Shown: positions 1 to 9,748 of the stretch, piece after piece
Position numbering within the stretch: position 1 is the first letter of the stretch
How the letters are laid out: each line of letters opens with the position of its first letter
Source: a virus
Lineage: Duplodnaviria; Heunggongvirae; Uroviricota; Caudoviricetes
Direction: 5' to 3' (one strand)
IMG/VR virus record: IMGVR_UViG_2671180603_000017
Span: 1 to 9,748 of that record
DNA length: 9,748 bases
Position numbers and translations under genes: made by a program
The notes under the pieces: generated by a model
The model's input: only the letters and a program-made list of their open reading frames with translations
Told to the model about the DNA's origin: nothing
The model's database searches: none

Positions 1-75
1 CTGATAGTGACACCAATTTCAAAACAACCTTCAGACGTATTAACGTTTGGTAATAACGTCTCCATTATTGCGTCC

Positions 76-627
76 TCAACAATGAATTTTGAGTAATTGT
101 TCCACAGTCATATTTTTAATTGCGCCCCGGTTAACAAGAGTCCATCCCTGTTTTTCCAGATAAAACCGGAAAGTCTCCAGGGGACAGACCAGTGCGCCAT
201 CAGGAACGGTTTCGGTGAATTCGACATTGCCGAATTTGTCGAAGTGAACAACCAGAGTGCGACCATCACCCGGAATCATCTTGTCAGCAGGTGGGGTGTT
301 ATTCTGGCGCAGTTCGGCCTCCATGCGGTCGAACTCAGCAATGTATGCCTCTTTGAATGCGGCGGCTTTTTTGCCCGTGAAGCCCATCACCAGGAAAACG
401 AAGCCGTTTTTGGTGATTTGGTACATTGGGAGTTTGCGCCCGATTGAGTCGGTGTATTCGCTCGCTTCAAAATTGAGGGCAGTAAATTTATCTGAGCATT
501 CAATATTTGCGATGGCACGTAACACATTGTCGTGTCGTTTGTGGAAGAACTCTGCAACCGCAACAGACGTAGTGACAGCGCGACCGTTTTCTACGGTTAC
601 ACAAGGGTGAGAAAGGGTAGTAGCCAT
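76..627 (-). CDS. Rha-family phage regulatory (antirepressor-like) protein, module copy 1; 183 aa from ATG 625-627; an in-frame upstream AUG at 718-720 would add 31 aa
   Basis: The track ORF 76..990 carries Rha-type motifs from memory (ENGRAVTTS..AEFF.KRHDNVLR, then YQITKNGFVFLVMGFTGKKAAAFKEAYIAEFDRMEAEL). The ATG at 625-627 is preceded by GGAGG with 8-nt spacing. The track's longer N-terminal extension runs through a promoter, a non-coding RNA and a terminator, so it is unlikely to be coding. Confidence 0.7.
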   Translation of the reverse strand: MATTLSHPCVTVENGRAVTTSVAVAEFFHKRHDNVLRAIANIECSDKFTALNFEASEYTDSIGRKLPMYQITKNGFVFLVMGFTGKKAAAFKEAYIAEFDRMEAELRQNNTPPADKMIPGDGRTLVVHFDKFGNVEFTETVPDGALVCPLETFRFYLEKQGWTLVNRGAIKNMTVEQLLKIHC

Positions 628-660
628 GATGGCAGCCTCCGCGATGAATTTGATTAACTC

Positions 661-690
661 ACCACCGGAGGTAGCAATCTCATGGGTGGT
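661..690 (-). promoter_or_regulatory. Leader hairpin (stem CUCACCACC/GGUGGUGAG) whose loop contains site B (GAUUGCUACC), a same-sense mimic of the small-RNA loop
   Basis: 9-bp stem; the loop sequence is identical to the sRNA loop core and therefore complementary to site A; covaries in copy 2. Confidence 0.45.
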
Positions 691-700
691 GAGACGTACA

Positions 701-714
701 GGGTTGCTACAACC
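701..714 (-). promoter_or_regulatory. Leader target site A (mRNA sense GGUUGUAGCAACCC), complementary to the small-RNA loop; sits just downstream of in-frame GUG/AUG at 723-718
   Basis: Ten base pairs with one bulged nucleotide against sRNA GGG(A)UUGCUAC; covaries with the sRNA loop in copy 2. Confidence 0.5.
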
Positions 715-793
715 GGTCATCACGGAACCCGGCCAGTCTTGCGACTGCCCCGCACGCCCCACCATAATTTGAATGTGGCTGTGCATTACGCAT

Positions 794-816
794 AAAAAAA
801 CCGCCTGAGCGCGGTT
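794..816 (-). terminator. Intrinsic terminator: 6-bp stem AACCGC/GCGGUU, 6-nt loop, U7 tract
   Basis: Hairpin followed by a U-run on the minus strand; the plus strand has no T-run after the stem, so it is unidirectional. The stem is short, so termination may be partial. Confidence 0.45.
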
Positions 817-870
817 ATGCGCCGTGAATGACTTCGGGGTAGCAATCCCGGCACCCGTTTTATGAGGTGC
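794..870 (-). ncRNA. Putative ~77-nt antisense-type small RNA (c4-like by analogy), copy 1; second hairpin CGGG-AUUGCUAC-CCCG
   Basis: Strong promoter immediately upstream, no AUG inside, two hairpins (GCACC/GGUGC and CGGG/CCCG), ending in a stem (AACCGC/GCGGUU) plus U7 terminator. The loop is complementary to leader site 701-714. Confidence 0.5.
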
Positions 871-876
871 AGGTGC

Positions 877-905
877 ACTATAATTCCACCCGTTCTGGTT
901 TTCAA
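877..905 (-). promoter_or_regulatory. Sigma70-type promoter for the small RNA and possibly read-through Rha mRNA: -35 TTGAAA (905-900), 17-bp spacer, -10 TATAGT (882-877)
   Basis: Near-consensus hexamers at optimal spacing, read directly on the minus strand; identical in copy 2. Confidence 0.5.
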
Positions 906-1044
906 TAGCTACATTCAACATTTTCTCTTTCCTTTCATCACCGAAGTGAACTTTGTTGATGCGGTGAATGCGGCTCAGCGCACGCGGCACAGTTAAAAAG
1001 CGATTAGTTCCCCCGTATCGGGTGGTTATGGGTTTCCCTGTATA

Positions 1045-1610
1045 GCTGAACCAGACGTTCGCTCCTACAGCACCAAATCAGGTCTGGGTGGCGGACCTGA
1101 CGTATGTTGCCACACAGGAGGGATGGTTGTACCTCGCTGGCATCAAAGATGTTTATACGTGCGAAATTGTCGGCTACGCCATGGGAGAGCGCATGACAAA
1201 AGAGCTGACAGGTAAAGCCCTGTTTATGGCGCTCAGGAGCCAGCGCCCACCTGCCGGGCTAATCCACCACTCTGATCGAGGTTCACAGTACTGCGCATAC
1301 GATTACCGGGTCATACAGGAGCAGTCTGGTCTGAAAACATCAATGTCGCGTAAAGGTAACTGTTACGACAACGCTCCGATGGAAAGCTTCTGGGGAACGC
1401 TGAAAAATGAGAGCCTGAGCCACTATCGTTTTAATAACCGGGATGAAGCCATCTCAGTAATACGGGAATACATTGAGATTTTCTACAATCGTCAGCGTTG
1501 TCACTCTCGTCTGGGGAATATCTCCCCGGCAGCCTTCAGGGAAAAATATCATCAGATGGCTGCTTAAAAAAAGAACAAATGGTAGTGTCCGCTATTGCCA
1601 GTACACCTCA
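1045..1610 (+). mobile_element. IS3-family (IS600-like) element, 3' fragment of 566 bp ending at the right terminus ...GCCAGTACACCTCA
   Basis: Near-exact reverse-complement copy of 2823-3388; contains the transposase OrfB C-terminal coding region; the terminus ends in CA as in the IS3 family. Confidence 0.8.
1046..1567 (+). pseudogene. IS600-like transposase OrfB, C-terminal fragment (5'-truncated, no start codon)
   Basis: Track ORF 1088..1567 has a C-terminal sequence identical to that of ORF 2866..3966; the reading frame is open back to the fragment boundary. Confidence 0.8.
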
Positions 1611-2154
1611 AAAGTAATTGTTCCACAGTCATATTTTTAATTGCGCCCCGGTTAACAAGAGTCCATCCCTGTTTTTCCAGATAAAACCGGAAAGTCTCCA
1701 GGGGACAGACCAGTGCGCCATCAGGAACGGTTTCGGTGAATTCGACATTGCCGAATTTGTCGAAGTGAACAACCAGAGTGCGACCATCACCCGGAATCAT
1801 CTTGTCAGCAGGTGGGGTGTTATTCTGGCGCAGTTCGGCCTCCATGCGGTCGAACTCAGCAATGTATGCCTCTTTGAATGCGGCGGCTTTTTTGCCCGTG
1901 AAGCCCATCACCAGGAAAACGAAGCCGTTTTTGGTGATTTGGTACATTGGGAGTTTGCGCCCGGTTGAGTCGGTGTATTCGCTCGACACAAAATTGTGCT
2001 CAGTGAATTTTGCTGAACAGTCCAGATTGCGAATTTTATCCAACACTCGTTCGTGGCGTTTGCCAAAGAACTCGGCGATCGCAACAGAGGTAGTGACAGC
2101 GCGACCATTTTCGATGGTTACGTCAGGGTGAGAAAGGGTAAGGATAGTAGCCAT
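1564..2154 (-). CDS. Rha-family antirepressor-like protein, module copy 2 (196 aa from ATG 2154-2152); divergent N-terminal domain, C-terminal tail and stop codon supplied by the abutting IS600 end
   Basis: Mosaic paralog of 76..627: residues after the Rha domain are identical, the Rha domain is divergent (MATILTLSHPDVTIENGRAVTTSVAIAEFFGKRHERVL...). The last 11 codons (LRCTGNSGHYHLFFF*) read into IS sequence. Confidence 0.6.
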   Translation of the reverse strand: MATILTLSHPDVTIENGRAVTTSVAIAEFFGKRHERVLDKIRNLDCSAKFTEHNFVSSEYTDSTGRKLPMYQITKNGFVFLVMGFTGKKAAAFKEAYIAEFDRMEAELRQNNTPPADKMIPGDGRTLVVHFDKFGNVEFTETVPDGALVCPLETFRFYLEKQGWTLVNRGAIKNMTVEQLLLRCTGNSGHYHLFFF

Positions 2155-2323
2155 GATGGCAGCCTCCGCGATGAATTTGATTAACTCACCACCGAGGTTT
2201 TCCACGACCATAAGGGTGGTGAGACGTACAGGGGTGGAAATACCGGTCATCACGGAACCCGGCCAGCCTTGCGGTTGCCCTGCACGCCCCACCATAATGC
2301 GAATGTGGCTGTGCTTAACGCAT

Positions 2324-2400
2324 AAAAAAACCGCCTGAGCGCGGTTATGCGCCGTGAATGATTTCGGGTTTCCACGCCCGGCACCCGTTTTATGAGGTGC
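2324..2400 (-). ncRNA. Putative small RNA, copy 2; second hairpin CGGG-CGUGGAAA-CCCG
   Basis: Same promoter (-10 at 2412-2407, -35 at 2435-2430) and terminator as copy 1; differs from copy 1 only in the hairpin-2 loop and one adjacent base; loop complementary to leader site 2231-2244 (mRNA sense GGUAUUUCCACCCC). Confidence 0.5.
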
Positions 2401-2406
2401 AGGTGC

Positions 2407-2435
2407 ACTATAATTCCACCCGTTCTGGTTTTCAA
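2407..2435 (-). promoter_or_regulatory. Sigma70-type promoter for small RNA copy 2 (TTGAAA, 17 bp, TATAGT)
   Basis: Sequence identical to the copy 1 promoter. Confidence 0.5.
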
Positions 2436-2474
2436 TAGCTACATTCAACATTTTCTCTCACCTTTCATCACCGA

Positions 2475-2628
2475 AGTGAATTTTGTTGATGCGGTGCCTG
2501 GTGCCTCCAGGTGACGTTAACCAGTTAACAATTACAGTTGGCTTTCCCACCCAAACCAATAAGGACTAACATGACTTTTAACTGTGCCGCGTGCGCATAG
2601 CCGCATTCACCGCATCACAAAATTCACT
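2475..2628. repeat. 23-bp inverted repeat (AAGTGAATTTTGTTGATGCGGTG / CACCGCATCACAAAATTCACTT) flanking a ~107-bp spacer; right arm continues as an inverted copy of the copy 1 upstream sequence
   Basis: Direct comparison with copy 1 (941-1002) shows the distal segment is in opposite orientation in copy 2. Confidence 0.6.
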
Positions 2629-2865
2629 TTAAAAAGGGCGGACATCAGCCAGCAATTAAACCGATGCCGCCAACTGGTACTTCACACAGCAATGTCGTTA
2701 TTTACAACCGGAGGCGCACTCCCACCATTTAAATTTAACAGACAAGACCGACTCTTTATGGATACCGGAAATGCGCCTTCGTGTTGTGCCCGGTTTTATT
2801 TCACCACCTCCGGGCTTTGGTATGAGGTGTACTGGCAATAGCGGACACTACCATTTGTTCTTTTT

Positions 2866-4271
<1,406 letters not shown>

Positions 4272-4272
4272 G

Positions 4273-4575
4273 GTTCAGCAGATTTGGCGCAACTGGCAGA
4301 TTGTGGTTCGAGTTCGTAGTCGCTCTGAACTTGCGTTTCTGCTTACAGCGTAGCCTTAGCTCCTTACGAAGACGTGCCAGTCGGTCACGACCAACGATGA
4401 TGCCATTCTCTGCCAGCTCCGTCTGGAGCCGCCGGGTTCCATATGTTTCGCGAGTGCGGATATGTGCCACCTTAATCTCCAGTTTTAGCCGCTCATCACT
4501 TTGTTTTCTGTCTGAGGGTTCATGCTGTACCCAGTTGTAATAACCGCTCCTGGATACACCAAATACCTGACACAT
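4273..4575 (-). pseudogene. IS600-like OrfB N-terminal portion, interrupted at 4272 by the IS911-like terminus
   Basis: Track ORF 4198..4575 matches IS600-like OrfB (MCQVFGVSRSGYYNW...NLPVAPNLLN) and then diverges at the junction. Confidence 0.7.
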
Positions 4576-4610
4576 CGCTTCAATGGGAAATTGTTGTCGC
4601 CATTGTTCGA

Positions 4611-4913
4611 TTAACGCGTATTTTTCAGCGACTCCTGTGCAAAATACGCTGTTGCTTTTTTTAATATATCTCGCTCAAGGCGAGCTTCATTTAACGCCTT
4701 ACGCAGTTGCAGAATTTCAGATTCCAGTTCAGCCACCGTGCGGGAACCAGGAGTACCGAGCCCTTTTCTGGCGGCGGTAACCCATTGTCCTAAAGTGCCT
4801 TCAGGAAGAGATAATCGGGAAGCGCCTTCACTGATCGAAAGTTGATTTTCAGGAACCGTTCTGACAGCTTCGGCTTTGAACTCTTTAGAGTAACGTTGGG
4901 TTTTTCTGCTCAT
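4611..4913 (-). CDS. IS600-like OrfA (transposase N-terminal HTH and leucine-zipper protein, 100 aa)
   Basis: Track ORF MSRKTQRYSKEFKAEAVRTV...ILKKATAYFAQESLKNTR, typical IS3-family OrfA; followed by an overlapping orfB in the -1 frame. Confidence 0.8.
   Translation of the reverse strand: MSRKTQRYSKEFKAEAVRTVPENQLSISEGASRLSLPEGTLGQWVTAARKGLGTPGSRTVAELESEILQLRKALNEARLERDILKKATAYFAQESLKNTR
4655..4662 (-). promoter_or_regulatory. Programmed -1 ribosomal frameshift site (A AAA AAA G) joining orfA to orfB
   Basis: A7G run in the orfA frame (UUA AAA AAA GCA). The orfB frame is open from this point down to 4273 (read codon by codon), as in other IS3-family OrfAB fusions. Confidence 0.6.
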
Positions 4914-5023
4914 TATTAGCTCCTTCTGATGCCATTCTATTTCAGGAAGGAGTGTCCGTTAAACTCAGGCTACCTCAGTGGTATCTTTACTGAAGTTCTC
5001 ACACAACCAGTAAGGAAATGAAT

Positions 5024-5314
5024 ATGCCAACGTATCTCGCCAGAGTAGAACTATATAATGCTGAGCCAGAGGATTACGAAGGGCTTCATAAATATATGCT
5101 CTCACTAGGATTCAGGAGAACGATCCCCCATGGAGATGGTTCGTATAATCAACTCCCGGACGGAACTTATGTTTCCGAAAAGGGCGGTGATATTTATCAA
5201 ATTCGCAGCCAGATATCTGACTATGCAGACCGACTATCCAGGTATCGCGCGTCTGTTTTTGTTTGCGAATTCAGTCAATGCGCATGGTATTTATACCCCG
5301 CCAAGACCCGGTGA
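5024..5314 (+). CDS. Hypothetical protein, 96 aa (track ORF 5018..5314; second ATG favoured)
   Basis: AAGGAA Shine-Dalgarno 7 nt before ATG 5024; no recognisable family. Its 3' end overlaps the convergent gene 5291..5494 by 24 bp, so one of the two calls may be wrong. Confidence 0.35.
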   Translation: MPTYLARVELYNAEPEDYEGLHKYMLSLGFRRTIPHGDGSYNQLPDGTYVSEKGGDIYQIRSQISDYADRLSRYRASVFVCEFSQCAWYLYPAKTR

Positions 5315-5494
5315 ATATCCTGCACGGCCTTCTGCTTTGTAGAAGGCTTCTTCGCTATCATAATCGCCAGATTCCAGCGCTTCTTTAGCCAGCCAGATGC
5401 GTGCCCCAGTGCCTGCATTTGGCTCCAGTTGCTGGAGGCGTTTTGCATCTTCTAGGAGTAGAGCGATAACGTGTTTTAATTCTGTCTCGTTCAT
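5291..5494 (-). CDS. Hypothetical small acidic protein, 67 aa (MNETELKHVIALLLEDAKRL...)
   Basis: ATG 5494-5492 preceded by AGGTGA; start lies 4 nt after the stop of the upstream small gene (compact, possibly coupled). Confidence 0.45.
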   Translation of the reverse strand: MNETELKHVIALLLEDAKRLQQLEPNAGTGARIWLAKEALESGDYDSEEAFYKAEGRAGYSPGLGGV

Positions 5495-5495
5495 T

Positions 5496-5651
5496 TTACT
5501 CACCTGAATGTCTTCCCAACCAACGACGTGCGCCAGCTTCGGTTTTAAACGTTTTGCTTTTGGTATACGTCATGGCGGTGAATGTGCCGTCTTGATTGGG
5601 AAACACGCCACATACCAGAGATTCGTTGTTGCCAAGATCGATAGTATTCAT
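5496..5651 (-). CDS. Hypothetical small protein, 51 aa (MNTIDLGNNESLVCGVFPNQDG...)
   Basis: ATG at 5651-5649 with a G-rich Shine-Dalgarno upstream; first gene downstream of the leftward promoter at 5832-5860. The track ORF's TTG start at 5714 is unlikely. Confidence 0.45.
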   Translation of the reverse strand: MNTIDLGNNESLVCGVFPNQDGTFTAMTYTKSKTFKTEAGARRWLGRHSGE

Positions 5652-5831
5652 GTTGACCCCATTTCCCCTTAACGCCGGGTGGCGGAACGTTTTATCTACT
5701 GCGCTTTGTATCAATCAACAACTGCCGTCATGTTCGTATGCCTCAGGCTGGCTACTTAGCCCTGTTCAGTGACTGGATAACTCGAGGTATTGTCCTGCCG
5801 TTCTCTGGTGGGGCGTTGTTTGGATATGCTT

Positions 5832-5873
5832 ATTAAACACAATTTGTTTTCTTGTGTCAACACGCAACGTGTT
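5832..5873 (-). promoter_or_regulatory. Leftward (PL-like) promoter: -35 TTGACA (5860-5855), 17-bp spacer, -10 TTTAAT (5837-5832); overlapped by operator-like palindromes AACACGCAACGTGTT (5859-5873) and ACACAA-N9-TTGTGT (5837-5857)
   Basis: Hexamers and palindromes read directly; the half-site AACAC/GTGTT recurs in the divergent promoter region at 6434-6448. Confidence 0.45.
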
Positions 5874-5902
5874 TTATGGTGAGTGTCATATGATGATGCT
5901 AC

Positions 5903-5925
5903 AAAAAAGCCCGCTGATAGCGGGC
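5903..5925 (-). terminator. Intrinsic terminator of the repressor gene: stem GCCCGC/GCGGGC, 5-nt loop, U6 tract
   Basis: GC-rich hairpin followed by a U-run on the minus strand, 32 nt downstream of the repressor stop. Confidence 0.6.
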
Positions 5926-5956
5926 TGATTGGCATATTACTGTGATAGCAAGATCA

Positions 5957-6376
5957 TTATTCCGGTGGGGGATTATCTTTAATCCTGCCTCTCAAATATT
6001 TTTCTACATACTCATCGATTTCTTTTAGCCGGACTTCAAATAGCTCAATCATTCGTTGTTGTTCTGAGCCCGGTAGCTGGTTAAACAACTCAAGAAGTTT
6101 TCGTTGGGATTCATTTAACCACAATTCAGAAGATTCCTGTTCTCCAAAGAGGAGCTCAGGAGGAGATATGCCAAGTGCCTTTCCCAATACGACAGCGTCA
6201 TGTACTCCAACATTTCTGCTGCCCGCCTCATAGTTACCTATACGCGATTGCGTCCATCCGCAGATTTCAGCAAGTTTTCCTTGAGATAAACCAAGCTTCT
6301 GCCTGCGCTCTTTAAGACGCATTGCAATTTTGTCATTGAGCCTACTAGCGGCAATTTTTTCGTTTTCTTTTTCCAT
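5957..6376 (-). CDS. Prophage repressor, HTH XRE family (DicA/CI-like), 139 aa
   Basis: HTH motif LGLSQGKLAEICGWTQSRIGNYEAG; a C-terminal segment (QRKLLELFNQLPGSEQQRMIELFE) resembles my recollection of DicA; divergently arranged with a Cro-like gene. Confidence 0.7.
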   Translation of the reverse strand: MEKENEKIAASRLNDKIAMRLKERRQKLGLSQGKLAEICGWTQSRIGNYEAGSRNVGVHDAVVLGKALGISPPELLFGEQESSELWLNESQRKLLELFNQLPGSEQQRMIELFEVRLKEIDEYVEKYLRGRIKDNPPPE

Positions 6377-6387
6377 TGCATCCTTGT

Positions 6388-6448
6388 ATCACGAATCGTG
6401 ATTTACATAAAACACAAAACAGCTTGGCTATATAACACAAGGTGTGTT
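6388..6448. promoter_or_regulatory. Divergent promoter/operator region: palindromes ATCACGA-A-TCGTGAT (6388-6402) and AACACAAGGTGTGTT (6434-6448)
   Basis: Perfect inverted repeats in the 96-bp intergenic region between the repressor and Cro-like genes; GGAGG Shine-Dalgarno at 6462-6466. Confidence 0.5.
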
Positions 6449-6472
6449 TAAAATTGTCATCGGAGGTTTTCA

Positions 6473-6715
6473 ATGAACAAAATTTCAACATATCGAAAAC
6501 AGCTTGGGCTGTCTCAAAGACAACTTGCTGTTCAGTTAGGGTGGATACAAAGCCGACTGGCAAATTACGAAGCAAATTTTCGTACCCCTGGACTAGAGGA
6601 GTGCAGAAAAATTGTTTCTACCCTTAATCGGCTTGGCGCTCATTGTGGACTTGACGATGTATTCCCCCCAGACGGTAAGCATAGCGAAAACAGCATAGGA
6701 GCGGTTGATTCATGA
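6473..6715 (+). CDS. Cro/YdaS-like HTH DNA-binding protein, 80 aa
   Basis: HTH motif LGLSQRQLAVQLGWIQSRLANYEAN, nearly the same recognition helix as the repressor; strong RBS; stop overlaps the next ATG (ATGA). Confidence 0.65.
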   Translation: MNKISTYRKQLGLSQRQLAVQLGWIQSRLANYEANFRTPGLEECRKIVSTLNRLGAHCGLDDVFPPDGKHSENSIGAVDS

Positions 6716-7133
6716 AAATCAGGCATGAGCACATCGAATCAGTGCTGTTGCCCTGGCAGCCGAAAAAGGGCAGGCGTGGGTCGCTAACGCAATTACTGAA
6801 GAATATCTGCGCCAGGGGGGCGGCGAATTGCCCCTTGTACCAGGCAAGGACTGGAACAATCAGCAGAATATCTATCACCGTTGGTTGAAAGGTGAAACGA
6901 AAGCGCAAAGGGAAAAAATTCAGAAACTGATCCCTGCGGTTCTGGCAATTCTTCCGCGTGAGCTGCGTCACCGACTCTGTATCTTCGATACCCTGGAACG
7001 CCGTGCATTACTGGCGGCGCAGGAAGCGTTGAGTACGGCAATTGATGCGCATGATGATGCAGTCCAGGCCGTTTACCGGAAAGCGCATTTCAGCGGCGGC
7101 GGGTCTTCCGACGATTCTGTCATTGTTCATTAA
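6712..7133 (+). pseudogene. ydaT: YdaT-like (Rac prophage) gene with an apparent 1-bp deletion frameshift near 6748-6752
   Basis: ATG 6712 is translationally coupled (ATGA) and encodes MKIRHEHIESVL, then hits a stop at 6886. The rest of the protein (AEKGQAWVANAITEEYLRQGGGELPLVPGKDWNN...SDDSVIVH) is in the -1 shifted frame (track ORF 6828..7133), which has no ATG or GTG start. Confidence 0.55.
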
Positions 7134-7196
7134 GCAAAAGTTTCCATGCTGTTTGTGCTTATTCTAAGCAACCGGGCAGCATCATACGGGGCAATT

Positions 7197-8345
7197 ATGG
7201 CCGCATTACCATACATGCAACTGTACATAGCTGATTACCTGGCTGACACCATGCATTTGTCAGCAGAGGAGCACGGCGCGTATTTGTTGCTGATGTTCAA
7301 TTACTGGCAAACAGGAAAGCCAATACCCAAAAACAGGTTGGCAAAAATTGCCCGTCTGACTAACGAGCGATGGGTTGATGTTGAACCATCCTTGCGGGAG
7401 TTTTTTTGTGATAACGGCGACGAATGGATGCATCTTCGGATTGAGGAAGATCTGGCATCTGTCAGAGAAAAATTAACCAAAAAATCAGCCGCAGGAAAAG
7501 CATCTGTTCAGGCCAGAAGAAGCAGAAAGGAAGCAGATGTTCAAACAAAACAAGAGAGAAATTTAACAGGTGTTCAAACAGATGTTGGAGTGATGTTCGA
7601 ACATGATGCCAACACAAAGGCAACTAATAAAGATACAGATAAAGATCTAAAAACAGATCTAACCCATCCCAAACCCTTCCCTTCCGGAAGGGAGTTTCGG
7701 GATTTTGTGGCTGGAGTGCTTGAGGGGAGATTATCTGGCGGTACTGCAGCGGAATTTTGTAATTCTGCGGTGGTTGCGTTGCAGGCTGCTGGCCTGGATG
7801 TCTGTCGTGAGTATCCGGTGCCAGAGCGTGGTGACGGTTGCGGAGGGCGGATTGATATCGTCGTGACTGACAGGAACGGTGTCCGGTGTGGGAGCGAGCT
7901 TGACCGAAATTCTCCGCGACAGAAATCACTGCTCAAAATCGGTGCTGTTGAAACCGGGATATGTGTCTTGCGGCGCAGTGATATCGCAAGGCACACCGAG
8001 CAGGGAATTCTGGTTATCGGTGGGGCTGTTCGCCAGAAAAAATTTGACCCGTTGTCAGTTGATCTGCCCGACTGGTTGCCAGAAACACTCTGGCATGAGT
8101 GGGTCCAGTTCAGGCAGGCATTGCGAAAACCGATTCGAACGGAGCAGGGCGCTAACGGGGCGATACGGGAACTGGAAAAATTCCGTCAGCAGGGTTTTAC
8201 ACCTGAGCAGGTGATTCGACACAGCATCGCCAATGAATACCAGGGTCTGTTCGCGCCGAAAGGTGTTCGGCCTGAGACGTTGCTCCGACAGGTTAACACC
8301 GTCTCGTTGCCGGACAGTGCGATCCCGCCAGGCTTCAGGGGGTAA
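7197..8345 (+). CDS. YdaU-like phage replication protein (N-terminal DUF1376-type domain, charged linker, C-terminal domain), 382 aa; alternative start 7146
   Basis: Track ORF 7146..8345; the internal ATG 7197 has a G-rich Shine-Dalgarno; N-terminus MAALPYMQLYIADYLADTMHLSAEEHGAYLLLMFNYW; positioned directly upstream of a DnaC-like gene. Confidence 0.6.
   Translation: MAALPYMQLYIADYLADTMHLSAEEHGAYLLLMFNYWQTGKPIPKNRLAKIARLTNERWVDVEPSLREFFCDNGDEWMHLRIEEDLASVREKLTKKSAAGKASVQARRSRKEADVQTKQERNLTGVQTDVGVMFEHDANTKATNKDTDKDLKTDLTHPKPFPSGREFRDFVAGVLEGRLSGGTAAEFCNSAVVALQAAGLDVCREYPVPERGDGCGGRIDIVVTDRNGVRCGSELDRNSPRQKSLLKIGAVETGICVLRRSDIARHTEQGILVIGGAVRQKKFDPLSVDLPDWLPETLWHEWVQFRQALRKPIRTEQGANGAIRELEKFRQQGFTPEQVIRHSIANEYQGLFAPKGVRPETLLRQVNTVSLPDSAIPPGFRG
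7536..7660. other. Putative replication origin inside the YdaU-like gene: three 12-bp iteron-like repeats G(A/G)TGTTC(A/G)AACA at 7536, 7569 and 7592, then an AT-rich segment with two GATC sites (7621-7660)
   Basis: Repeats read directly; they fall in the low-complexity linker coding region, as the lambda origin does within gene O. Confidence 0.35.
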
Positions 8346-8351
8346 CAGACC

Positions 8352-9098
8352 ATGAAAAATATTGCGACAGGAGGCGTTCTGGAGCGTATCCGCAGACTGA
8401 CCCCACCACATGTAACCGCCCCATTCAGAACGGTTGCGGAGTGGCGCGAGTGGCAACTTGCTGAAGGCCAGAAACGTTGCGAGGAGATCAACCGCCTGAA
8501 TCGTCAGTTGCGGGTGGAAAAAATCCTGAACCGCTCCGGCATCCAGCCGTTGCACCGGAAGTGTTCGTTTGCGAATTACCGGGCGCAGAACGACGGTCAG
8601 CGACATGCACTGAGTCAGGCGAAATCCATAGCTGACGAACTGATGACAGGCTGTACGAATTTTGTGTTCAGCGGTAAGCCCGGCACCGGAAAAAATCATC
8701 TTGCAGACGCGATTGGCAACCGGCTGATGGCGAAGGGGCGTAGCGTGATTATCGTCACCGTGTCCGATGTCATGAGCGTGTTGCATGAGAGCTACGACAA
8801 CGGCAAATCCGGTGAAAAATTTTTACAGGAGCTTTGTGGTGTTGACCTGCTGGTCCTGGATGAAATTGGCATGCAGCGGGATACGAAAAACGAGCAGGTG
8901 GTACTGAACCAGATTGTTGATCGCCGGACGGCATCGTTACGCGGTGTGGGGATGCTGACAAATATTAACCATGCAGCGATGAATACACTTCTCGGCGAGC
9001 GGGTGATGGATCGCATGGTCATGAACGGCGGGCGCTGGGTGAATTTTAACTGGGAGAGCTGGCGTCCGAATGTTAGCCATTCGAGGGTTGTTAAGTAG
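8352..9098 (+). CDS. ydaV: DnaC/IstB-like AAA+ helicase loader (YdaV-like replication protein), 248 aa
   Basis: Walker A GKPGTGKNHLA and Walker B LLVLDEIG; position after the replication-initiator-like gene; close to my recollection of Rac YdaV. Confidence 0.75.
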   Translation: MKNIATGGVLERIRRLTPPHVTAPFRTVAEWREWQLAEGQKRCEEINRLNRQLRVEKILNRSGIQPLHRKCSFANYRAQNDGQRHALSQAKSIADELMTGCTNFVFSGKPGTGKNHLADAIGNRLMAKGRSVIIVTVSDVMSVLHESYDNGKSGEKFLQELCGVDLLVLDEIGMQRDTKNEQVVLNQIVDRRTASLRGVGMLTNINHAAMNTLLGERVMDRMVMNGGRWVNFNWESWRPNVSHSRVVK

Positions 9099-9112
9099 TT
9101 TCAGGAGGATTT

Positions 9113-9535
9113 ATGGCGAAACCTTTTACTCCCGAACAGCGGGAAGAACTGAAGACGCGAATTGTGGAACTCGTGCATCAGGACGGTCGGGTCACGATTC
9201 GGCAGTTGTCAGATGAAACAGGTATCAGTCGTGCGTCTGTCGGTCGCTTATGCATAGAACTGGTCGCAAGTGGTGATGTATATAATTCTGGCTACGGCTT
9301 ATTCCCGTCTGAACAGGCTCGCAAGGACTGGCAAAGCGCCCGCAAAAAACTCTCGAGAGTAAAGGTGAGGAAACCGGTTGTTGTTGATCCGGACCTTATC
9401 TGGTCATTACCTGACGGAGAAATACGCCGCTACGACAGGCGCCTGAATATAATCTGTCGCGAGTGCCGGAAGAGCGAAGCTATGCAGCGTGTACTGGCTT
9501 TCTATCAGGGTAATTTTCAGGAGGCGATACTGTGA
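9113..9535 (+). CDS. Hypothetical phage protein with a putative N-terminal winged-HTH (VTIRQLSDETGISRASVGRL), 140 aa
   Basis: AGGAGG Shine-Dalgarno 5 nt before the ATG; C-terminal region duplicated in the next gene. Confidence 0.55.
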   Translation: MAKPFTPEQREELKTRIVELVHQDGRVTIRQLSDETGISRASVGRLCIELVASGDVYNSGYGLFPSEQARKDWQSARKKLSRVKVRKPVVVDPDLIWSLPDGEIRRYDRRLNIICRECRKSEAMQRVLAFYQGNFQEAIL

Positions 9536-9592
9536 ATGAAATTAGCTATCAGGCTTCAATTACCGCTGGCATTCGCATCAAAGGAGAGGAGC

Positions 9593-9748
9593 ATGGAAAT
9601 AAAACACAAAAAGCTATCGAGGGTAAAGGTGAAGAAACCGGTTGTGGTTGATCCTGACCTTATCTGGTCATTACCAGACGGAGAAATACGCCGCTACGAC
9701 AGGCGCCTGAATATAATCTGTCGCGAGTGCCGGAAGAGCGAAGCTATG
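9593..9748 (+). CDS. Partial CDS (3' end outside window), paralog sharing the C-terminal module of the preceding gene (…KLSRVKVKKPVVVDPDLIWSLPDGEIRRYDRRLNIICRECRKSEAM…)
   Basis: ATG 9593 preceded by AAGGAGAGGAG; an in-frame alternative ATG exists at 9536; 9610-9748 is near-identical to 9347-9485. Confidence 0.5.
   Translation, partial: MEIKHKKLSRVKVKKPVVVDPDLIWSLPDGEIRRYDRRLNIICRECRKSEAM

Follow-up and report, generated by a model that had tools for sequence, protein, structure and literature searches.

We analysed positions 1 to 9,748 of the IMG/VR virus record IMGVR_UViG_2671180603_000017 (Caudoviricetes), and this whole stretch of 9748 nucleotides (nt) is referred to below as the window. 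The window is part of a lambdoid prophage of the Rac type from E. coli or Shigella; between 5900 and 9549 it is almost the same as E. coli FDAARGOS_944, from which 44 mismatches and a single 1-nt gap separate it, and the ydaS-ydaT-ydaU-ydaV region is a Rac-type module. Within its ydaU-like replication initiator gene lies an array of short dyad-symmetric words followed by an A-rich tract (7536-7662), which is probably the replication origin of the prophage. A preliminary description of the sequence had drawn attention to repeats in the low-complexity linker of the YdaU-like protein. The features of the gene and of its downstream partner are as follows.

7197-8345, plus strand: ydaU-like replication initiator gene, 382 amino acids (aa); ATG at 7197, with a further in-frame ATG upstream at 7146
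7197-7535, plus strand: region coding for the N-terminal DUF1376 domain, predicted to consist of a winged helix and, after it, a long basic helix (aa 80-112)
7536-7626, no strand: array of GTT/AAC dyad words on an 11-12-nt lattice (from sequence, repeats, register, conservation, dyad changes and scan rank)
7623-7634: 12-mer ACTAATAAAGAT at the border of array and A-rich tract, invariant in DNA across the sampled YdaU lineages
7623-7662: A-rich tract of low stability, candidate DNA-unwinding element (from stability, the GC minimum in ydaU, GATC at 7644 and 7656, and copy-number variation)
7660-7673: mosaic junction (…ACAGATCTAACCCATCCC…), from alignments with K-12 Rac and of proteins, the linker DNA of loci L012 and L009, and a stack of 54 sequences
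7674-8051, plus strand: region coding for an optional inserted domain of about 126 aa (378 nt, in frame), absent from K-12 YdaU (PHROG 1347, E = 3e-20)
8040-8342, plus strand: region coding for a DnaT-like C-terminal domain (PDB 2ru8, E = 2e-4; 9zbt, E = 8e-4)
8352-9098, plus strand: ydaV-like gene for a DnaC-type helicase loader, starting 7 nt past the ydaU stop codon

The repeat array and the A-rich tract

Three 12-mers had been named as iteron-like repeats, and all three were found where they had been placed: GATGTTCAAACA at 7536-7547, GGTGTTCAAACA at 7569-7580 and GATGTTCGAACA at 7592-7603. The last had been called a perfect palindrome; such a palindrome of 12 nt exists, but it is displaced by one base, as ATGTTCGAACAT at 7593-7604. 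It is not conserved: in K-12 Rac the corresponding sequence is GGTGTTTGAACA, in which the core of repeats 1 and 2 appears inverted. The three 12-mers are the most obvious members of a longer array, extending from 7536 to 7626, which comprises the following words and dyads.

7539-7546: array word GTTCAAAC
7564-7569: array word TAACAG
7572-7579: array word, second copy of GTTCAAAC
7581-7590: array word GATGTTGGAG
7595-7602: array word GTTCGAAC
7610-7615: array word CAACAC
7621-7626: array word CAACTA
7564-7588 and about 7583-7614: two larger dyads

AAC triplets are present at 7544, 7565, 7577, 7600, 7611 and 7622 (spacings of 21, 12, 23, 11 and 11 nt) and a GTT half-word at 7584. When the sequence was set in rows of 11 nt, nearly every row contained a GTT…AAC junction or an AAC half-word. 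The 'iterons' of the array are short dyad words on an 11-nt lattice, and not long iterons of the lambda style. The array is situated between the DUF1376-coding and the C-terminal-coding parts of ydaU, and is thus a dyad-symmetric repeat cluster inside an initiator gene. A possible outlying copy of the words, TGGGTTGATGTTGAACCAT at 7371-7389 in the N-domain coding part, matches 7586-7604 at 74% and is proposed with low confidence. At the offset of window positions 7365-7397, other lineages (L065-L093, L003) carry extra copies of their own words by means of fixed synonymous codons in the DUF1376-coding part. Three copies of CGTTG at 11-nt spacing occur in the group with CAACGG words and two of ACGTTGAAC in a Pseudomonas phage, and the window itself has GATGTTGAAC; all of these may be outlying binding sites.

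We assessed the repeats statistically in the window sequence alone. Three copies of a 10-mer with at most one mismatch in 7527-7626 had a probability of 0.001 in mononucleotide shuffles, and of 0.027 when synonymous codons were resampled with the protein held fixed. In an unbiased scan for repeated 7-mers on either strand, the 90-nt stretch 7501-7590 ranked first of 1932 stretches of the window.

The A-rich block with GATC sites (7644 and 7656) does follow the repeats, as had been described. Nearest-neighbour calculations identified 7623-7662, immediately 3' of the array, as the 40-mer with the lowest duplex stability in the whole window (-41.9 kcal/mol, where 40-mers average -55.2 with a standard deviation of 3.8), and the GC minimum of ydaU falls in this tract. 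The pair of GATC sites is not significant alone; GATC is under-represented across the whole window. At the border of the array and the tract, ACTAATAAAGAT was found as an exact match in 84 sequences with 44 distinct upstream regions, and all 12 of its columns were invariant, including four third-codon (synonymous) positions.

The tract itself varies among relatives. Sequences related to 7635-7660 (L065-L093, L004, L005) contain an in-frame hexanucleotide run, (GATACA/GATCCA/GATATA)n, with a copy number of about 1 to 7 among close relatives, and K-12 types vary in a CCCCCCCTAAAT unit (L028). In one IMG/VR locus (L033), foreign DNA (TGAACCGCCCCGGGTTTCC…) cuts ydaU within the A-rich tract, right after ACTAATAAAGATAC, leaving a 159-aa product, which looks like a mobile-element insertion into the tract.

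Conservation of the array as DNA

About 90 related loci were compared, the sample being made up of 80 IMG/VR loci with N-domains 73-100% identical, together with phage and genome loci. The register was examined in 20 non-redundant relatives and the dyads in a 20-sequence alignment; 16 non-redundant sequences were gap-free from the start codon to ACTAATAAAGAT. The preliminary description had looked to homologous genes for the presence or absence of the repeats, and the homologues were found to carry them, in lineage-specific versions.

Self-matching of the array peaked at a lag of 11, where it reached 0.44 compared to a background of about 0.26; harmonics followed at 22-23 and 33-34, and no comparable periodicity was detected in the N-domain coding controls. 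The array unit is AAC(G/A)GNYGTT(C/G). Since the number 11 cannot be divided by 3, the words pass through all three reading frames. Repeats 1 and 2 of the window lie in one frame (DVQT and GVQT) and repeat 3 in another (V-MFEH); the Salmonella homologue (68% protein identity) keeps the words, and a 1-nt indel there puts TGTTCAACA into yet another frame. Information per codon position was 1.72, 1.79 and 0.97 bits in the N-domain, which is the usual coding signature, and flat (1.16, 1.32 and 1.08) in the 90 nt preceding the 12-mer. Within the array, nucleotide identity (0.58-0.75) was higher than amino-acid identity (0.40-0.59). As judged from these alignments, the pattern shows that selection in the array acts on the DNA and not on the protein.

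Direct and inverted words shifted jointly between lineages (AACA/TGTT versus AACG/CGTT), with CAACGG accompanied by inverted CCGTTG in one group, and CAACA by inverted TGTTG or TGTTTG in the Rac and Salmonella types. Concerted change of this kind would be expected if copies of one recognition word in both orientations co-evolved with their binder. The two larger dyads were complementary in 95% of the cells of the 20-sequence alignment, while slid controls paired in 28-48%. Changes on both sides of a dyad, i.e. compensatory changes, were seen in 24 cells compared to 7.6 ± 3.4 in shuffles, and none of 500 shuffles reached 24.

Repeats at an equivalent position were not confined to close relatives of the window gene. 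The DUF1376 genes of Pseudomonas, Rhizobium, Acetobacter and Acinetobacter phages contain repeats of their own at a gene offset of about 330-420, and so does an E. coli initiator with an unrelated N-domain.

Pseudomonas phage PfDIW6 (DUF1376): CGTT(C/G)AACGA four times at 11-nt spacing, then the purine tract GAAGAGAA
Pseudomonas phages AH02 and PfAn1 (DUF1376): words resembling (C/T/G)(C/A)AACGA at intervals of 11-12 nt, followed by (ATACAG)n
Rhizobium and Acetobacter phages (DUF1376): TGCAAA words
Acinetobacter phage (DUF1376): AAAACCCAAGTGGTT twice
E. coli 376-aa initiator, unrelated N-domain: five GCGTTAC/GTAACGC words, then the purine-rich tract GAGGAAGAGGAAGAGGAAGATATAAATACTGATC, at the equivalent position

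The 376-aa E. coli initiator (P0099, P0107; L012/L013, 3001-4131) is common. Its N-domain is without a Pfam match, and it has the insert and the DnaT-like C-domain (the 3' module) of the window protein.

The stretch following the N-domain ranked first in the 7-mer scan in 8 of 13 non-lambda loci. In lambda, used as a control, the first rank went to the annotated iterons (offset 348-433 in O), which are followed by an A-rich tract. The parallel with lambda that the preliminary description had drawn is therefore borne out in so far as distant or unrelated initiator genes, lambda O included, carry their own repeats at the same position. In both lambda and the window the origin or candidate origin lies in the linker-coding middle of the gene (iterons from offset 348 in lambda, first repeat at offset 339 in the window), about 40 nt of A-rich, purine-biased sequence come after a dyad-symmetric repeat cluster, the gene downstream codes for a helicase-delivery protein, and the N-domain and origin form one specificity module with an exchangeable C-domain. 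The differences are also clear. Lambda has four 18-nt iterons at 20-24-nt spacing, whereas the words of the window measure 6-8 nt, occur in both orientations and follow an 11-12-nt lattice; the partner in the window is a DnaC-type AAA+ loader and not a lambda P-type protein; and the C-domain of YdaU is DnaT-like, unlike that of lambda O. YdaU and lambda O share no sequence similarity (BLASTP E = 1.9). We considered membership of YdaU in the lambda O family (Pfam Phage_rep_O) and rejected it, as there was no Pfam hit to that family and only the C-terminal part matched a PHROG named 'O-like'. Since YdaU is not a relative of lambda O, the comparison is one of analogy.

The YdaU protein, its mosaic gene and the surrounding locus

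The ydaU product matched Pfam DUF1376 (PF07120) over aa 5-87 (E = 7e-25; 87.7 bits against a gathering cut-off of 30.1) and a PHROG annotated 'primosomal protein' (E = 2e-116). Two minus-strand open reading frames (ORFs), 7462-7623 and 7574-7996, were set aside, because they lie on the strand opposite ydaU, the product of which matches protein families strongly. The DUF1376 domain is predicted to fold as a winged helix resembling replication-initiator domains. All six fixed differences between the AACA and AACG lineages, at YdaU residues 84, 91, 94, 95, 108 and 109 (window about 7446-7523), are in the basic helix 80-112, and none is in the winged-helix core. These residues are possibly a determinant of specificity, or they may merely reflect linkage to neighbouring array DNA; since the helix adjoins the array-coding DNA, recognition and linkage are inseparable here.

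K-12 ydaU is 95% identical to the window over 7100-7659 and about 8037-8400, and the 3' 61-62% of YdaU is 97% identical to E. coli proteins of 376-380 aa that lack DUF1376. In a stack of 54 sequences, several different 3' modules start immediately after the tract. On these alignments the window ydaU is a mosaic, with a Rac-type 5' part up to about 7660 and, beyond it, an insert and a C-domain drawn from a different family of initiators. By the same comparisons, the N-domain, the array and the tract travel as one specificity module, while C-terminal modules are swapped just past the tract. Movement of these three parts together is what recognition of the array by the N-domain predicts.

The inserted domain had no Pfam or NCBIfam match, a word-indexed homologue search found almost nothing, and its structure model was unreliable (predicted local distance difference test, pLDDT, 48). 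It has 239 relatives, at the same mid-protein position in initiators of the YdaU type, of the lambda O type (P0246) and of other phages, and it also occurs as stand-alone proteins of 100-140 aa. In locus L002, this ydaU allele is annotated in RefSeq as two pseudogene fragments, 9047-9559 and 9959-10246 (corresponding to window 7146-7659 and about 8058-8345). The frame is open throughout (382 aa), and the annotated 'gap' is a domain found in hundreds of intact relatives; the pseudogene call on the mosaic ydaU is probably a misannotation.

The C-domains of YdaU and DnaT (primosomal protein I, of PriA-PriB-DnaT restart) are homologous over the last ~93 residues and share the end …VNTVS.PDS.IPPGFRG, including the terminal PDS.IPPGFRG. 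A sister-lineage YdaU matched DnaT with E = 9e-26, and the C-terminal part of YdaU matched PHROG 678, 'replication initiation O-like' (E = 3e-23). In place of the N-domain and the acidic PriB-binding linker of DnaT, YdaU has a predicted DUF1376 winged helix and a linker encoded by the candidate origin, and its targeting would be via DNA sequence and not via PriA/PriB at a fork. The C-domain of DnaT forms a helical filament on single-stranded DNA and marks the loading site of the helicase DnaB (PMC13377028). We also compared YdaU with the RepA_N plasmid replicons of Gram-positive bacteria (pSK41/pTZ2162 RepA, PDB 4pta). YdaU belongs to DUF1376 and has no RepA_N sequence match; host range, C-domain and partner protein differ as well, and the fold score is too low for a claim of homology. 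The YdaV-like protein matched Pfam IstB_IS21 and Bac_DnaA, NCBIfam PRK12377 (E = 8e-152) and NCBIfam DnaC (E = 3e-91, under the equivalog cut-off), and from these matches YdaV is classed as a DnaC paralogue.

The gene order is repressor, cro-like, ydaT-like, ydaU-like, ydaV-like and a DUF977 gene, with the first two placed as follows.

5957-6376, minus strand: repressor gene (ORF list, Pfam)
6473-6715: cro-like gene (ORF list, Pfam)

The ydaT-like gene (6712-7134) has a 1-nt deletion near 6750 relative to the near-identical FDAARGOS_944 locus, which splits it into two ORFs, 6712-6888 and 6828-7133, and it is either a frameshifted pseudogene or the result of a sequencing error. At the junction of the cro-like gene and ydaT, TTGATTCATGAAAATCAG (6705-6722) has one mismatch to the published YdaT operator motif TTGATTN6AATCAA (PMC9986795). 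This was the best match, and none was found within ydaU. A promoter and terminator scan of 6300-7800 gave nothing exceeding chance, and Rfam had no match in or close to ydaU. Further away, C4 antisense RNA (Rfam RF01695) and isrK (RF01394) occur in two copies each, at 682-870 and 2212-2400 on the minus strand. They lie upstream of two diverged copies of an ORF of ~300 aa (76-990 and 1564-2451) in a duplicated segment; in FDAARGOS_944 the counterpart of this ORF carries the annotation Rha family phage regulatory protein. Fragments of insertion-sequence-type, transposase-like ORFs, some of them duplicated or nested, break up the early-left region at 1088-1567 and 2866-4913.

Interpretation of the element

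We consider it likely that window 7536-7662, within the linker-coding part of ydaU, is the replication origin (oriJ type) of the Rac-type prophage, because the repeats are conserved as DNA and not as peptide and lie beside the most meltable DNA of the window, with a loader gene following. The origin that had been proposed for the YdaU/YdaV-like pair is thus supported computationally: the repeats are in the linker-coding part, directly upstream of the easiest-melted DNA, and the gene for a DnaC-type loader comes next. An origin inside the initiator gene is a textbook arrangement, and the existence of an origin in Rac has long been known. With 4 differences in 7466-7660, the array and tract share about 98% identity with K-12 Rac, and the window element would, on this sequence comparison, correspond to oriJ. 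The window differs from K-12 Rac in the 378-nt in-frame insert and the other C-terminal module just 3' of the tract. oriJ is the experimentally defined origin of K-12 Rac. One paper states that Rac possesses it in active form (PMC3945230), and another mentions oriJ plasmids, citing Potrykus 2000 (PMC11014345).

Initiation could proceed in the following manner. Transcription from the immunity region would express ydaU and ydaV and run through the origin. The winged-helix N-domains of YdaU, to judge from the anatomy of the element and the predicted fold, would bind the GTT/AAC dyad words, and a YdaU oligomer would assemble on 7536-7626; because the words recur every 11-12 nt, the sites face roughly one side of the helix. 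The resulting strain might then melt the adjoining tract 7623-7662, for which low stability was calculated. The C-domains of YdaU, homologous to that of DnaT, could cover the single strand thus opened and so label the site of loading, a part played by the DnaT C-domain in restart, and YdaV would deliver the host DnaB.

Alternatively, the array may be a cis-acting protein-binding site with a role other than initiation, such as ydaU-ydaV autoregulation, copy control or handcuffing, packaging or partition, or a recombination-promoting 'linker'. We regard this as unlikely. The DNA-level conservation and dyad covariation show a sequence-specific function without saying which, and the invariant 12-mer and a GATCTAAAAGA block are placed exactly at the mosaic junction. 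However, a phased array next to the least stable duplex, inside an initiator gene and upstream of a loader gene, is the origin layout of the lambda control, with which another type of cis-acting site is less consistent. An 11-nt lattice with compensatory changes would be superfluous in a recombination linker, and the known YdaT operator motif is absent from ydaU.

More unlikely still is that the dyads act as hairpins in RNA or single-stranded DNA, for example to influence the translation or stability of the ydaU mRNA or to assemble a primosome or primase. The RNA fold of 7520-7670 had a z score of -2.25, with 6 of 200 shuffles folding equally well, and two short helices are kept through both-side changes in the 20 sequences. 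The consensus structure is weak, however (-7 kcal/mol, helices of 8 and 5 pairs), and the covariation is equally expected from co-evolving direct and inverted copies of one binding word. Hairpins would also leave unexplained the 11-nt lattice of direct copies and the unpaired, invariant 12-mer, and a role as a single-stranded DNA hairpin would still be an origin function.

It is very improbable that the repeats are functionless as DNA and a by-product of the repetitive, low-complexity linker of the protein (DVQT / GVQT / DTDKD). Repeats 1 and 2 do code for DVQT and GVQT in one frame, the tract codes for a D/T/K-rich linker, and (GATACA)n codes for (DT)n in frame. But other frames are used by repeat 3 and by the phased half-words, and the 11-nt period passes through all three. 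Identity is higher in nucleotides than in amino acids, the array lacks the codon-position signature, the synonymous positions of the 12-mer are invariant, and synonymous resampling yielded three copies in only 2.7% of trials. The probability of chance similarity within an A-rich stretch is negligible: loose matches (at most two mismatches) were not significantly enriched in the whole window when taken alone (6 against 3 expected) and autocorrelation in the single sequence was not significant, but the stretch ranked first of 1932 in the repeat scan, and register and words are kept over dozens of diverged loci. From the comparative sequence data, both the peptide by-product and chance are effectively excluded.

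Several observations weigh against the assignment of 7536-7662 as an origin. Evidence from the single window is only moderate, given the probability of 0.027 with the protein fixed and a best lag autocorrelation that was not significant in the window sequence alone (P = 0.09). The first repeat (7536) is absent from the Salmonella homologue. Because the DnaD N-domain, one of the fold matches of DUF1376, is mainly an oligomerisation domain, DNA binding by DUF1376 can only be inferred, and both binding and initiation at the element are putative. No DnaA box matching TTATNCACA with at most one mismatch was present in 6452-9247, and thus none in or near ydaU. The oriC-like 13-mer GATCTnTTnTTTT gave a single match with two mismatches, at 7647-7659 on the minus strand, and 4 matches in the window against 3.65 expected. 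A DnaA-dependent origin of the oriC type was rejected, as there are no DnaA boxes beside the unwinding element and the 13-mers are not enriched. A literature search revealed no fine map of oriJ in the accessible literature, the original mapping papers being outside that reach, and the 'oriJ' primers of PMC3945230 amplify inside ydaV and not ydaU, and so provide no fine map. Finally, excised K-12 Rac DNA has been described as replication-defective (PMC11014345, PMC11879457).

If the element is the origin, oriJ of Rac, which is unmapped in the accessible literature, would be placed at nucleotide resolution, and the K-12 genes ydaU and ydaV, as well as Pfam DUF1376, present in temperate phages of many Proteobacteria, would acquire a role. 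In the accessible literature we did not find a description of the 11-nt dyad lattice with its concerted evolution, of the invariant 12-mer, of the winged-helix fold of DUF1376 or of the fusion of DUF1376 to a DnaT C-domain. For annotators, mosaic ydaU genes are being called pseudogenes, and a coding stretch is under non-coding constraint. The word variants that distinguish lineages (AACA/TGTT versus AACG/CGTT) provide ready material for specificity swaps. More tentatively, DUF1376/YdaU could constitute a distinct and widespread class of phage initiators, in which a DnaD/RepA_N-like winged helix polymerises on an 11-nt lattice of GTT/AAC dyads in its own gene, and a captured DnaT C-domain then forms filaments on the strand exposed by melting, so marking where DnaB is to be loaded. 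Phage initiators would then have recruited the single-stranded DNA filament domain of DnaT, giving a sequence-targeted version of the replication-restart primosome that mirrors DnaA with a reversed order of domains.

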